Positions 11,817 through 50,731 of a stretch of 64,000 nt of DNA are shown here, one piece after another (position 1 is the stretch's first letter; each line of letters starts with the position of its first letter). A model generated the notes under the pieces. The model saw only the letters and a program-made list of their open reading frames with translations, was not told the DNA's origin and ran no database searches. A program made the position numbers and the translations under genes. Source of the DNA: Candidatus Aenigmatarchaeota archaeon (lineage in GTDB: Archaea; Aenigmatarchaeota; Aenigmatarchaeia; JACPZZ01); the NCBI GenBank assembly GCA_016180965.1, contig JACPAF010000001.1, positions 10,111 through 74,110 on the forward strand, in the 5' to 3' direction.

Positions 11817-11943
11817 GCCTGGGTGGCTCAGTGGTAGAGCGCCAGAAATTTGGCGAAACTCATAAGGCGATGTATGAGTGTTGAGCTTATGCTATGATAA
11901 CTAAGACATCTGGAAGTCGTGAGTTCGATCCTCACCCCAGGCA
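11817..11943 (+). tRNA. tRNA-Met-CAT: tRNA-Met/Ile2(CAT) with two predicted introns (30/31: 11846-11857; second approx 11866-11908)
   Basis: Acceptor GCCTGGG/CCCAGGC, D arm GCTC-AGTGGTA-GAGC, T arm GTGAG-TTCGATC-CTCAC. Removing both inserts gives CCAGA-CTCATAA-TCTGG. The first intron has a clean BHB core (CGCC/GGCG with 3-nt bulges). The second BHB is relaxed (3 of 4 pairs), so its exact junction is uncertain. Confidence 0.7.
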
Positions 11944-16942: not shown

Positions 16943-17566
16943 ATGAACGACTGGGAAAAAATGAACAGGATAAAGGCGATATTCTTCAATCTTTTCAGGG
17001 GCTGGTTGGAAGGTAGCCCGACAGAACTCAAAATTAACCATGGCAAATTGTTTGACATGCTTCACGAAGGCCTGGTCAGGAATTGGGTGAGCCTCGAGAA
17101 CCAGATGAGGCCGGGATTTATACCGATGGCGAGAGGAATTCTCTACGAAGTTCTTTTTTACTGCTCCTGCATGCGATTAAGAAGTTTTTTCATTTACAGG
17201 GGCATGAAATACAAGTTCGAGATATTCCCATTTTATGACCTGAGCCCGAAAAGCGTTGTTAATGACGTCACAGACATGAGTTACATAAAACCGGATTTTT
17301 TCCTGAAATACAAGGGAGAAGGATTCTTTCCCCCGATACTTGTGGACGTGAAATCTTATGAAAGGTCTGATGAACAACTAAAGAAACAGGCGAGCCTTTC
17401 GATGAAACACGGCTTTCTATACCAGATAGCGTACCCAAAAATTAAGTATCCGAAACATTTGGGCGATTGGAACATACGAAACGTATGCCCGCACTGCGGA
17501 AAGTTGAATGAATACACTTCTTGCGAAGGCTGCCACAATCAGATATTTTCCGATTTTGGCGGTTGA
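16943..17566 (+). CDS. Hypothetical protein with C-terminal zinc ribbon
   Basis: 207 aa. CPHCG...CEGCHN at the C-terminus. PDFF...ILVDVKSYE is weakly reminiscent of a PD-(D/E)xK motif. Confidence 0.5.
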   Translation: MNDWEKMNRIKAIFFNLFRGWLEGSPTELKINHGKLFDMLHEGLVRNWVSLENQMRPGFIPMARGILYEVLFYCSCMRLRSFFIYRGMKYKFEIFPFYDLSPKSVVNDVTDMSYIKPDFFLKYKGEGFFPPILVDVKSYERSDEQLKKQASLSMKHGFLYQIAYPKIKYPKHLGDWNIRNVCPHCGKLNEYTSCEGCHNQIFSDFGG

Positions 17567-17567
17567 A

Positions 17568-17671
17568 TGCGGTTACCGGGATTCGAACCCGGATTAAAAG
17601 CTGTCTCCGTTTTCCCCAAATTCAAGGAAAAGGCATGGGAAGCTTTTGTCCTGCCATTAGACCATAACCGC
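17568..17671 (-). tRNA. tRNA-Gly-CCC: tRNA-Gly(CCC) with canonical 37/38 intron (17603-17635, 33 nt)
   Basis: Reverse complement: GCGGTTA..AAAGC-TTCCCA|intron|A-GCTTT..CCGGG-TTCGAAT-CCCGG-TAACCGC-A. BHB central helix TTCC/GGAG with 3-nt bulges. Confidence 0.9.
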
Positions 17672-18409: not shown

Positions 18410-18490
18410 CTAGAAACATACGCTTAACAGCTAGAAGCATACCGTATACTGTATCGGTATGCTTCAGTTTACGACGCGTATGTTTCAGTT
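18410..18490. repeat. Nested pair of family hairpins upstream of tRNA-Leu
   Basis: Outer CTAGAAACATACGC...GCGTATGTTTCAGTT encloses inner CTAGAAGCATACCGTATACTGTATCGGTATGCTTCAGTT (18431-18469). Confidence 0.8.
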
Positions 18491-18512: not shown

Positions 18513-18733
18513 GCGGGGGTAGCCAAGCCCGGTCAAACTTGAGTGATGAGGTTAAGAAAACTGGCGCAACAACAAACTGACACATACATAGTATGTGTCT
18601 GGTTGCAATGCGCCTGTCTGAACAACCAATGACTAGAGGCGTCAGACTCAAGTTGAACTTTAGAAAAAAGTTTGATAGAAGAGGGAAATCTGATCTCCTA
18701 GCGAGTTCGTCGGTTCAAATCCGGCCCCCCGCA
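18513..18733 (+). tRNA. tRNA-Leu-CAA: tRNA-Leu(CAA) with D-loop intron (approx 18538-18635/7) and 37/38 intron (18653-18687)
   Basis: Exons join to GCGGGGGTAGCCAAGCCCGGTCAAA(GA)GGCGTCAGACTCAAGATCTGATCTCCTAGCGAGTTCGTCGGTTCAAATCCGGCCCCCCGCA, a typical archaeal class II tRNA-Leu. The D-loop intron has BHB core GTCA(18532-35)/TGAC(18630-33) with 3-nt bulges. Confidence 0.8.
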
Positions 18734-18821
18734 CTTTCCTTTCACTGAAAAAGCCATATTTAAACCTTGCAGAAACTCATTATTCAGTGAAAACTCAGAT
18801 AGAGTTGCGGAATTGGTGTCC

Positions 18822-19904
18822 ATGAAAGCATACCTAGGCTATTCGGTTGTCGGCGTGTTTGCGTTTAACCCAGCCGGCGCGCTATTGGACAAGGAGTTTT
18901 TCAAGAAAGACGCGAAACAGATCTCCATCAAATTAAACAACGTAAAAAACGAATTCCTGGACGAAGAACTTGTATTACTTAGAAGACTTGCAAAGAAAGG
19001 CGTAAACGAATTTTTCGGTGCATATCCCAAATCAGGCGAGTTCCAAATTGACCGCGATCCCGAATCTTTGGGCGAAAACAAAGCCAAAGGCGTTTTTCGT
19101 GAAATTGCGCTCACGGATAAGTGGGTTGTTTCGCAGGCCGAATTAAATAAAATCCTGTCAAGCGTCGGATCTGAGAGTTCCAAAGAAGAACTGCGCAACG
19201 TAGAAAAGGATAAAATAGGCATGCGCGTTGTCGGAATGATAGACGAGTTCAGCAGGAACATAAATACGCTTTCAGAACATTTGCGCGAGTGGTACGGTCT
19301 TTACTTCCCGGAGATCAACGGGCTGCTGAAGGACAATGAAAAATTCGTAATTTTCGTGGCGGATAAGACATTGCGCGGAAATTTTGAGCGCGACGGCAAG
19401 AAGTTAGACATAGAAACCGCCGGCATGGAATTCGACGAGAATGATTTAGAAAGCGTGAAACAAGCCGGTTTGACATTAAAACAAATGTATGTTGAGCGCA
19501 GGAATTTGGAAAATTATCTTGAAATACTGGGCAAAAAAATAATGCCGAATATGTCTGCAGTCGCAGGCGCATTGTTAGCGTTCAGGCTAGTATCACAGGC
19601 GGGCGGGTTGGATAAGATTGTAAAACTACCGTCGTCCACAATACAATTGCTCGGTGCCGAGAAAGCTTTATTCAGGTTTTTAAAGAAGCAGGGCAAGGCT
19701 CCGAAACACGGCATAATTTTCTACCATCCTGCCGTAATTTCAGCGCCGATACCAATACGCGGAAAAATAGCGCGTATTGTTGCGTCGAAAATAACCATGG
19801 CGGCAAGGATTGATTTCTATTCCGGCAACGACAAAAGTGCGGCTATGAAAGAAGAGTTGAACCATCTGGTAAATAATGCTTTGGCGCATTTTAGGGAAAA
19901 GTAG
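18822..19904 (+). CDS. nop5: Nop5 (Nop56/58) C/D box sRNP protein
   Basis: About 360 aa. NOP domain (LLGAEKALFRFLK...PKHGIIFYHP). Immediately upstream of fibrillarin. ATG at 18822; the track ORF starts at a TTG at 18813. Confidence 0.9.
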   Translation: MKAYLGYSVVGVFAFNPAGALLDKEFFKKDAKQISIKLNNVKNEFLDEELVLLRRLAKKGVNEFFGAYPKSGEFQIDRDPESLGENKAKGVFREIALTDKWVVSQAELNKILSSVGSESSKEELRNVEKDKIGMRVVGMIDEFSRNINTLSEHLREWYGLYFPEINGLLKDNEKFVIFVADKTLRGNFERDGKKLDIETAGMEFDENDLESVKQAGLTLKQMYVERRNLENYLEILGKKIMPNMSAVAGALLAFRLVSQAGGLDKIVKLPSSTIQLLGAEKALFRFLKKQGKAPKHGIIFYHPAVISAPIPIRGKIARIVASKITMAARIDFYSGNDKSAAMKEELNHLVNNALAHFREK

Positions 19905-19912
19905 TTGGTCAG

Positions 19913-20569
19913 ATGAAGTTAAAGGAAATTTTTCCGGGAGTCTTCCGTATAGACGGCCAGCTGGCTACAAAAAACCTGGTTAATGGAAGATCGTATTCCG
20001 AAAAAATAATAAAAATCAACGGCGAAGAGTACAGGACCTGGAACCCTGAAAAATCCAAAGCTGCTGCAGCAATTGAACGCGGGATAAAAAATTTCCCGAT
20101 AAATAAAGGCTCAAAAATCCTATATCTCGGGATTGCACAAGGCCAGACGGCTTCTTATTTTTCCGACATAATAGGCAACGACGGAATAATTTACGGGGTC
20201 GAATTTTCGGCGCGCGCGGTTAGCGATCTTGTCATCGCGTGTGAAAAAAGGGGAAATATAGTCCCCATAAAAGCGGACGCACGCAAGCCCGAGGATTATT
20301 CCTGGGTCGAAAAGGTCGACGTAATCTACGAAGATGTCGCGGATTCGGAACAAGTCGCTATATTGCTAAGGAACGTTGAGGCGTTCCTGAAAAAGGGCGG
20401 TTATGCAATGATAGGCATAAAGTCGAGAAGCATAGACGTAACGAAAGACCCAAAAAAGATTTTCGAAGAATCCCTGTCTGCCATAAAGGAAAAGATGGAA
20501 ATACTTGACTATGTTACTCTCGATCCGTTTGAAGTCGATCACGCATTTATAGTATGCAAATTAAGTTGA
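19913..20569 (+). CDS. flpA: Fibrillarin-like rRNA/tRNA 2'-O-methyltransferase
   Basis: 218 aa. EYRTWNP..SKAAAAI, ILYLGIAQGQTASY, VYGVEFS motifs. Confidence 0.9.
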   Translation: MKLKEIFPGVFRIDGQLATKNLVNGRSYSEKIIKINGEEYRTWNPEKSKAAAAIERGIKNFPINKGSKILYLGIAQGQTASYFSDIIGNDGIIYGVEFSARAVSDLVIACEKRGNIVPIKADARKPEDYSWVEKVDVIYEDVADSEQVAILLRNVEAFLKKGGYAMIGIKSRSIDVTKDPKKIFEESLSAIKEKMEILDYVTLDPFEVDHAFIVCKLS

Positions 20570-50574: not shown

Positions 50575-50586
50575 ACTTTGTCGACC

Positions 50587-50622
50587 GAAGCATACCGATA
50601 CAGTATACGGTATGCTTCTAGT
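50587..50622. repeat. Family hairpin just 5' of tRNA-Ile (minus-strand sense)
   Basis: GAAGCATACCGATACAGTATACGGTATGCTTCTAGTT. The reverse complement of 50588-50622 is identical over 35 nt to 18431-18465. An additional ACTGGCG..CGCCAGT hairpin lies at 50633-50657. Confidence 0.85.
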
Positions 50623-50731
50623 TGTAACTAAAACTGGCGATTTTTGAATGCGCCAGTTTCTATTTACCACGCTTTAATCATTTTTTACGCAAGCTTAAAA
50701 AGATAAAAGCACGCCGTCTCATTGTAAATGT

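Follow-up and report, generated by a model that had tools for sequence, protein, structure and literature searches.

Box C/D small RNAs (sRNAs) of Pyrococcus target nucleotide 34 of exactly four transfer RNAs (tRNAs), those for Leu-CAA, Leu-UAA, Met and Trp (PMC7994747; PMC7668247). C34 of tRNA-Leu(CAA) is a predicted target of fibrillarin in P. furiosus, where the 2'-O-methylated form of this wobble cytidine (Cm34) is, as here, a prediction (PMC7668247). In the case of tRNA-Trp a guide is carried by the intron of the euryarchaeal precursor, an intron for which action in trans or ahead of splicing has been demonstrated (PMC4090602, PMC7994747), and in one review the tRNA-Trp intron is called a 'unique example' of a modification guide encoded within an intron (PMC4090602). 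As a rule, archaeal tRNA introns of the non-canonical kind are regarded as functionless insertions. The present analysis concerns an intron of 100 nucleotides (nt) in the D-loop of the tRNA-Leu(CAA) gene of a DPANN archaeon (Candidatus Aenigmatarchaeota), a gene that lies within a 64,000-nt stretch of DNA, hereafter the window. This intron, which has a bulge-helix-bulge (BHB) junction, probably carries a guide of its own, a 'half' box C/D-type element with a single kink-turn that would be aimed at the tRNA it interrupts and would direct the formation of Cm34.

The window corresponds to positions 10111-74110 of contig C2 in a 0.73-Mb, 7-contig assembly (44% G+C, 81% complete); the genome is designated G000, and coordinates given without a contig are those of the window. 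The genomes of its relatives are all 0.5-1.3 Mb in size. Comparisons within the genus were made on an alignment of seven orthologs from seven species (G000-G006), and those within the class on a table of 22 modules from 14 genomes, covering the tRNAs for Leu (CAA and UAA), Met (CAU), Trp (CCA) and Lys (UUU). The locus is present only in groundwater metagenome DNA runs, and no RNA runs containing it were found.

The tRNA-Leu(CAA) gene and its introns

The tRNA-Leu(CAA) gene is 221 nt long (18513-18733, forward strand), begins with GCGGGGGTAGCCAAGCCCGGTCAA, ends with GTCGGTTCAAATCCGGCCCCCCGCA and is divided into three exons (18513-18536, 18637-18652 and 18688-18733). Neither ARAGORN nor Rfam reports a tRNA in the unspliced gene. 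When 18537-18636 and 18653-18687 are excised, ARAGORN returns a perfect 86-nt class II tRNA-Leu(CAA) cloverleaf, in which the D stem GCC/GGC is intact and the D-loop reads AAGCCCGGTCAAA; the proposal of a first-pass annotation, made from the sequence alone, that the D-loop holds an intron of about 100 nt is thereby borne out. The Leu(CAG) gene of G000 contains the identical D-loop without interruption (13 nt, AAGCCCGGTTAAA). An intron-free Leu(CAA) copy elsewhere would have told against the intron, and a scan of the G000 assembly found no second gene for this tRNA, which is therefore single-copy.

The D-loop intron (18537-18636, forward strand) lies between tRNA positions 21 and 22, as placed by the alignment of the seven orthologs, in which conservation ends after GGTCAA and restarts at AGGCG. 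Exon 1 terminates in GCCAAGCCCGGTCAA(A) and exon 2 restarts with (A)GGCGTCAGACTCAAG; excision of 18538-18637 instead of 18537-18636 gives the identical product because the boundary falls within a run of A. Comparison with the tRNA-Leu genes of relatives, which the first-pass annotation had put forward as a check, places a D-loop intron at the identical site in all seven species of the genus (G000 and six others), and a site shared by seven genomes means that the insert is not there by chance. Three of these introns (G001, G004 and G006) are 38 nt long, that of G005 is 68 nt, those of G003 and G000 are 100 nt, and that of G002 is 141 nt. The insert is almost certainly a real intron whose removal yields tRNA-Leu(CAA). 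A second intron of 35 nt (18653-18687, forward strand) occupies the canonical 37/38 position; it is without the guide module described below, and it is missing from the G005 and G001 genes.

The junctions of the D-loop intron form a BHB motif, with two 3-nt bulges around a 4-base-pair (bp) helix. On the 5' side (18531-18537, forward strand) the helix strand GGTC (18531-34) is followed by the bulge AAA (18535-37), with the cut after 18536, and on the 3' side the strand GACT (18631-34) is followed by the bulge AGA (18635-18637, forward strand), with the cut after 18636, such that A18637 becomes tRNA position 22. The flanking helices are short, the outer being of 2 bp (CC/GG) and the inner of 3 bp (TTG/CAA) past one mismatch, and the motif is therefore of the relaxed form, the type that is cleaved by broad-specificity endonucleases (PMC4090602, PMC3239211). 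Among the seven orthologs 95-96% of the cells in the splice helix are paired, and the changes within it are one-sided only, between G-C and G-U. The base after GGTCAA varies (A, G, C, A, C, T, A), as do the two bases before AGGCG (AG, AG, AA, AA, AA, AA, TA), the third base of the bulge being invariably A. Minimum-energy folds of the D arm together with the intron do not display the splice helix. The first-pass annotation had recognised the BHB type correctly and had placed the register one base off, with a core of GTCA/TGAC and bulges AAC and TAG. That register does exist in the sequence, but two extra bases (GA) would then remain in the D-loop and the D stem would be disrupted; GGTC/GACT is preferred because a canonical D-loop then results in every ortholog. 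A splicing endonuclease is encoded in the same genome (PF01974 match, 94 bits, C2:88182-88454). As a side observation, this sole splicing-endonuclease match in G000 falls in a protein of about 200 residues (C2:87813-88481) with a 14-residue lysine-rich stretch (RGVKIKRGPKEAHE) between its RVYE and HTKW motifs, a stretch that may be a loop tied to a broad substrate range.

A conserved core of putative guide and kink-turn

The only intron columns that are invariant in the seven species are CTTGAGTG (18538-45), GA-G (18548-50), C18627 and ATGA (18629-32). Within the first of these lies a candidate antisense guide, CTTGAGT(G) (18538-18545, forward strand), whose first seven bases (18538-44) are, as the first-pass annotation had noticed, the exact complement of ACTCAAG (18646-18652, forward strand), the anticodon-loop segment A31-G37. 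All seven pairs are present in all seven sequences, and the guide is invariant where the adjoining intron bases are variable. The complementarity is not a by-product of the splice motif, because the splice helix of a D-loop intron, unlike that of introns at 37/38, excludes the anticodon. In the precursors of G000, G003 and G004 the duplex can run a further 2 bp into the second intron, extending it from 7 to 9 bp, and the tenth pair takes three different Watson-Crick forms (A-T, C-G and T-A), a hint only, with a probability by chance of about 0.1.

Directly downstream of the guide is a tetramer, ATGA (18546-18549, forward strand), that resembles box D'. In box C/D guides the nucleotide to be methylated is set by the base five positions upstream of box D or D'. 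Here the fifth base upstream of ATGA is G18541, which stands opposite C34 (18649), the wobble base, and the spacing is thus that of a box C/D guide. The two bases before the GA of this tetramer vary in the genus (AT, AG or CA) while the GA itself is invariant.

The remainder of the conserved core has the anatomy of a kink-turn. Read from 5' to 3', a first GA leads into a stem closed by a G-C pair; beyond a tip that varies, the stem's other strand follows, then a 3-nt bulge with U as its last base, and finally a second GA. The order of GA, stem, bulge and GA is that of the kink-turn in box C/D and Kt-7 motifs. In the window the GA at 18548-49 forms the non-bulged strand, the 5' strand of the canonical stem is GGTT (18550-18553, forward strand) and the 3' side (18624-18634, forward strand) consists of the pairing strand AACC (18624-27), the bulge AAT (18628-30), GA (18631-32) and CT, giving a C'-like box AAUGACU. 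All the elements of the geometry are found, namely GA on both strands, a 3-nt bulge ending in U and a stem closed by G-C, the closing pair G18550-C18627 being invariant. The 5' NNGA therefore stands in the place of box D' and AAUGAYN in the place of box C'. Within the genus the stem occurs as GGTT/AACC, GGCG/CGCC and GTTT/AAAC, with compensatory changes at 3 of the 4 pairs and 96% of cells paired. The covariation score of the stem and the count of doubly changed cells were each reached by none of 500 shuffles; the number of pairs with a double change is unexceptional, being matched by 107 of the 500.

The same module in other tRNA genes

In all 22 modules, from 14 genomes, an NNGA box begins 5 nt 3' of the base that stands opposite nucleotide 34, and is followed by a stem, an NNT (NNU) bulge and GA. 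The D'-like box reads xTGA in 18 of the 22, and the closing pair is G-C in 18 of the 22. Apart from the D-loop Leu(CAA) introns of the genus, the modules sit in anticodon-side introns. Those of Leu(CAA) in other families are at 31/32 (G024, G236, G048, G022) or at 37/38 (G029, G035). Leu(UAA) has a module in G035, and in G011 a guide and D'-like box with no clear C' box. Met(CAU) has one in G000 (11817-11943), G006, G005, G037, G009 and G027, and Trp(CCA) has one in G014; no tRNA-Trp gene was found in the G000 assembly, which is 81% complete. In the tRNA-Lys(UUU) intron of G000 (C3:71170-71346), which contains CTTAAAAG-AG-CTGA ... TAT-GA, the CTGA box is canonical and the fifth base upstream of it pairs with U34. 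The tRNA-Met(CAT) gene of the window (11817-11943, forward strand) was also noted to hold two introns, the larger of which contains TATGAGT-G-TTGA-GCTTATGC-TAT-GA, with the layout of guide, D' and C' boxes directed toward C34.

The tRNAs with the module include all four whose nucleotide 34 is a box C/D sRNA target in Pyrococcus (PMC7994747; PMC7668247). The module is not a general attribute of introns: those of the Leu(UAG) and Leu(CAG) genes in these genomes are without it. Three of the 30 tRNA genes of G000, those for Leu(CAA), Met and Lys(UUU), have a module directed at nucleotide 34; by our own arithmetic, for a 6-nt complement with a correctly placed GA in about 1.5 kb of intron sequence, some 0.02 would be expected by chance. 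Across 301 genomes of the class, matches to the pattern CTTGAGTGNNGA outside tRNA-Leu were at chance level, like those to a reversed-pattern control.

Leu(CAA) of G029 and G035 and Leu(UAA) of G035 and G011 also have an intron in the D-loop that follows GGTCAA, as in the genus, but that one is without a guide. In G029 and G035, of family f2, the Leu(CAA) guide lies in the 37/38 intron; in the genus of the window it lies in the D-loop intron, and the 37/38 intron, where there is one, has none. The simplest reading of this distribution is that the D-loop intron is old and that the guide module would have moved into it in the window's genus.

Box C/D proteins and gene order

The proteins on which such a guide would depend are all encoded in G000. 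The gene for Nop5, with its Nop domain, begins 79 nt downstream of the tRNA (18813-19904, forward strand; Pfam PF01798, E = 3.6e-49) and is followed by that for fibrillarin, the box C/D 2'-O-methyltransferase (19913-20569, forward strand; Pfam PF01269, E = 1.8e-79), while the L7Ae gene is at C5:40295-40570. The order of tRNA, nop5 and fibrillarin gene on one strand is kept in all seven genomes of the genus. The order also holds in family f2, where the tRNA-Leu(CAA) gene is about 0.5 kb upstream of nop5; it is not kept in families f5, f9, f14 and f17.

A possible mechanism

From the observed gene, boundaries, conservation, covariation, geometry and protein genes we infer the binding of L7Ae, the methylation and the order of events as follows. 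In the precursor the GA at 18548-49 and the GA at 18631-32 would form the tandem sheared pairs of a kink-turn, with the stem GGTT/AACC and the 3-nt bulge AAU. L7Ae bound to this kink-turn would recruit Nop5 and fibrillarin, and CUUGAGU just upstream would pair with bases 31-37 of the anticodon loop, over as many as 9 bp by way of the second intron. C34 would then face the fifth base upstream of the D'-like box, allowing fibrillarin to 2'-O-methylate the wobble cytidine to Cm34. Either the methylation would precede splicing or the excised intron would act in trans; in the former order the splicing endonuclease would then cut after 18536 and 18636, and the exons would be ligated.

Fundamental to this scheme is the sharing of bases between two structures. 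G18631-A18632 is used both by the kink-turn and by the splice helix, in which GACT is paired with GGTC, and C18627-A18629 is used by the stem and bulge of the kink-turn as well as by the inner splice helix. On account of these shared bases the guide particle and the endonuclease substrate should be mutually exclusive folds on one molecule. In G035 the GA of the C' box again lies within the 3' strand of the splice helix, TGAG, and because the overlap recurs there it seems to be part of the design.

Taken to its full extent, the proposal is that a natural single-kink-turn guide is housed in a D-loop intron and acts on the anticodon of the precursor to which it belongs, that its C'-like box doubles as a splice strand, with the binding of L7Ae and splicing excluding one another and methylation gating splicing, that the wobble-ribose guides of the class (those for both Leu(CAA) and Leu(UAA) and for Met, Trp and Lys(UUU)) are built into the introns of their targets, and that in the genus of the window the Leu(CAA) module was transferred from the anticodon-side intron to a D-loop intron of greater age. 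The wider scheme is offered tentatively and as a little short of an even chance.

Several observations weigh against a box C/D-type guide here. Archaeal box C/D sRNA particles normally have two kink-turns, and the locus presents a single conserved one (NNGA/NNUGA), a terminal C/D pair not being recognisable. The guide duplex is short, at 7 bp, or 9 bp in the G000 precursor. The D'-like box is ATGA, AGGA or CAGA and not CUGA, and the 3b-3n position is C-U in G000. No box C/D family of Rfam matches at the locus. Conservation of the 3' GA can be explained by the splice helix alone, and the independent support for a kink-turn therefore consists of the 5' GA, the G-C closing pair and the covariation of the stem. 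The tabulated modules are probably homologous, and 22 cases are thus not 22 independent events. Finally, a generic detector of a guide plus kink-turn is not specific, with 512 matches in the whole G000 genome against 231 in a reversed control, an excess of about twofold that may reflect base composition or hairpin repeats; only an analysis restricted to tRNA genes is therefore informative.

Alternative explanations

Could this be a plain non-canonical intron with passenger repeats, whose anticodon-loop match and GA motifs either survive from its transposition out of the anticodon loop into the D-loop or serve only the folding of the splice substrate, with no methylation at all? Transposition of introns between positions is documented in Thermoproteales (PMC4090602), family f2 has the guide in the 37/38 intron of the same gene, the guide pairs imperfectly with the intron's own 3' end in the minimum-energy folds of G001 and G006, and the 3' TGA is required by the splice helix anyway. 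A relic would decay, however, yet 8 + 3 + 1 + 4 bases have remained invariant while Nop5 is only 72-90% identical and the rest of the intron has been rewritten. Moreover, the pairing with the 3' end of the intron involves 4-7 of the 7 bases and is variable, whereas that with the anticodon loop is 7/7 in every species, and the stem of the kink-turn covaries; we regard an explanation without methylation as unlikely. A somewhat poorer prospect is that the kink-turn, bound by L7Ae, and the masking of the anticodon serve together as a folding chaperone or checkpoint that holds the anticodon arm open or blocks premature use or splicing, with no guided methylation. Mutually exclusive kink-turn and splice folds would suit such a role, as would a single kink-turn, which suffices for L7Ae and is atypical of a methylation particle. 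Masking, on the other hand, has no need of the exact N+5 spacing seen in 22/22 modules, nor of a restriction to tRNAs whose nucleotide 34 is ribose-methylated elsewhere (PMC7994747).

The long form of the intron might instead constitute a full box C/D sRNA directed elsewhere, for instance at ribosomal RNA (rRNA), given that GTGATGA (18543-49) fits the box C consensus perfectly and that CTGA (18618-21), present in G000, G002 and G005, could be box D. This we consider very improbable, as G003 has CTGC in place of the box D candidate, and the short introns (G001, G004) lack both CTGA and the consensus box C; no stem flanks the box pair, the candidate guides upstream of CTGA vary freely among species, Rfam is again without a match, and no conserved rRNA complementarity was seen upstream of CTGA in the long-form species. 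There is, lastly, the suggestion of the first-pass annotation that pairing between the anticodon loop and the 5' end of the D-loop intron links the folding of the two introns or, in a wider form, their removal. The extension of the duplex into the second intron, with its three different tenth pairs, would fit, but CTTGAGTG is invariant in G005 and G001, neither of which has an intron at the anticodon, and coupling is scarcely credible in consequence. An antisense guide of the box D' type, aimed at C34, accounts better for the complementarity.

A palindromic repeat at the tip of the stem

Between the two strands of the kink-turn stem lies a variable insert (18554-18623, forward strand), whose minimum-energy fold has an outer hairpin, GGCGCA (18563-68) with TGCGCC (18609-14), around an inner one (18575-18604, forward strand) with the stem GACACATAC (18579-87) and GTATGTGTC (18591-99) and the loop ATA. 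The nested stems that the first-pass annotation had drawn are thus recovered in the minimum-energy fold (z = -4.8). Its assignment of the inner hairpin to a family also holds, similar copies being present elsewhere in the genome: BLAST and a regular expression show the hairpin to be a member of a local palindromic repeat family, which with its flanks is 88-96% identical over 20-32 nt to 6 other loci and is found at 9 loci by the regular expression. The copies (C2:2877, 98447, 126447 and 227902; C5:7405 and 40195; C3:42270; C7:14279) occur in both orientations and nested. An inverted copy is found in the leader of the tRNA itself (18431-18465, reverse strand).

The hairpin was considered as the functional core of the intron and is ruled out in that role, since it is absent from the 38-nt introns of three of the seven orthologs; it is a passenger. 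At the tip, G001, G004 and G006 have an insert of 4 nt, G005 one of 41 nt, and G003, G000 and G002 one of 68-70 nt. In G005 it holds one hairpin (CTGACGCATAC-ATGG-TATGCGTCTG); in G003, G000 and G002 a second unit with the stem strands given above, flanked by AAACTGA and TCTGG, lies within the first one's loop. A third unit, in inverted orientation, separates exon 1 from the guide in G002; it is 41 nt in length and lies exactly at the 5' splice site (L002, G002:C2:8318-8358), and the splice bulge must therefore tolerate insertion. The series of 38, 68, 100 and 141 nt tracks the identity of Nop5 to that of G000 (72-77%, 79%, 82% and 90%), which suggests that hairpins were gained stepwise. The hairpin is very probably a repeat insertion, and copies of the palindrome would have been inserted step by step, nested one in another, into the tip of the kink-turn stem, a site that tolerates additional sequence. 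On that reading the series would represent a palindromic repeat accumulating in a functional RNA at its sole tolerant place.

A number of further observations concern the same repeats. The G006 ortholog (L005, G006:C7, reverse strand, about 17560-17620) has an apparent third intron within the T-loop (GGTTCGAA|AACTAGCC...), which begins with a copy of the hairpin family. A copy also lies directly upstream of the L7Ae gene of G000 (C5:40195-40221). At 50585-50660 of the window a family hairpin (GAAGCATACCG..CGGTATGCTTC) precedes a hairpin of ACTGGCG..CGCCAGT, beside the end of a tRNA on the minus strand; the latter hairpin, which the first-pass annotation had placed at 50633-57, does exist there. 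In the window as a whole there are 10 occurrences of the heptamer ACTGGCG, where 5 would be expected. Several copies of the hairpin family are crowded into a candidate tRNA gene of about 329 nt in G000 (C5:47955-48283, reverse strand; acceptor GCCGAGG...CCTCGGC).

Comparison with known systems

Why would an organism with a very small genome retain such an intron? A guide within it, if it is one, would supply a selective reason for keeping a non-canonical intron. It would also mean that a guide need not adjoin its target in the precursor, the wobble base here being some 100 nt away. A natural box C/D substrate with a single kink-turn, a half-mer, would bear on whether two box pairs are truly required, and very small genomes could, if the proposal is right, dispense with separate sRNA genes by placing guides inside their targets. 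No description was found, among the papers open to search, of a guide in tRNA-Leu(CAA), of one that lies in a D-loop intron at a distance from its target, or of a single-kink-turn guide that overlaps the splice helix.

The hairpin resembles REP/REPIN-like repeats in being a short imperfect palindrome with conserved flanks (AAACTGA...TCTAG), many copies in both orientations, and copies nested in copies. It is unlike them in being archaeal and in its concentration in the discarded parts of tRNA transcripts, no transposase having been identified here. With regard to the intron itself, the non-canonical and multiple BHB introns in tRNA genes of Thermoproteales, Nanoarchaeota and ARMAN similarly lie outside the anticodon loop (20/21 and 22/23 are known), have a relaxed BHB, occur several to a gene and are overlooked by standard finders (PMC4090602, PMC3239211). 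Those introns are usually 12-25 nt with no assigned function, in contrast to the present one with its conserved, functional-looking core. The elongator tRNA-Met of Nanoarchaeum equitans, with a 66-nt intron that gives a stable box C/D-like RNA, is likewise a case from the DPANN group of box C/D-like elements in the intron of a tRNA other than tRNA-Trp (PMC3491384); there the intron occupies the canonical position and has no defined target, whereas this one is in the D-loop.

The free-standing sRNAs of Pyrococcus for Leu(CAA), Leu(UAA) and Met share with the module the predicted target C34 and the enzyme system (PMC7994747, PMC7668247). They are, however, separate genes with two box pairs that act in trans, and in the window the guide would lie within the precursor of its own target. 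Closest of all is the intron guide of euryarchaeal pre-tRNA-Trp (Haloferax volcanii; Pyrococcus sR50), which also resides in an intron of a tRNA gene, has motifs of the box C/D type and is antisense to the wobble C34 of its own tRNA, and in which the guide and the splice substrate are likewise alternative structures (PMC4090602, PMC7994747). The differences lie in the host, which here is tRNA-Leu(CAA), in the position of the intron, at 21/22 and about 100 nt from the target in the gene in place of 37/38, and in the architecture: the pre-tRNA-Trp intron has complete C/D and C'/D' motifs with guides to both C34 and U39, and the D-loop intron of tRNA-Leu(CAA) would make do with one guide and one kink-turn of the C'/D' type.

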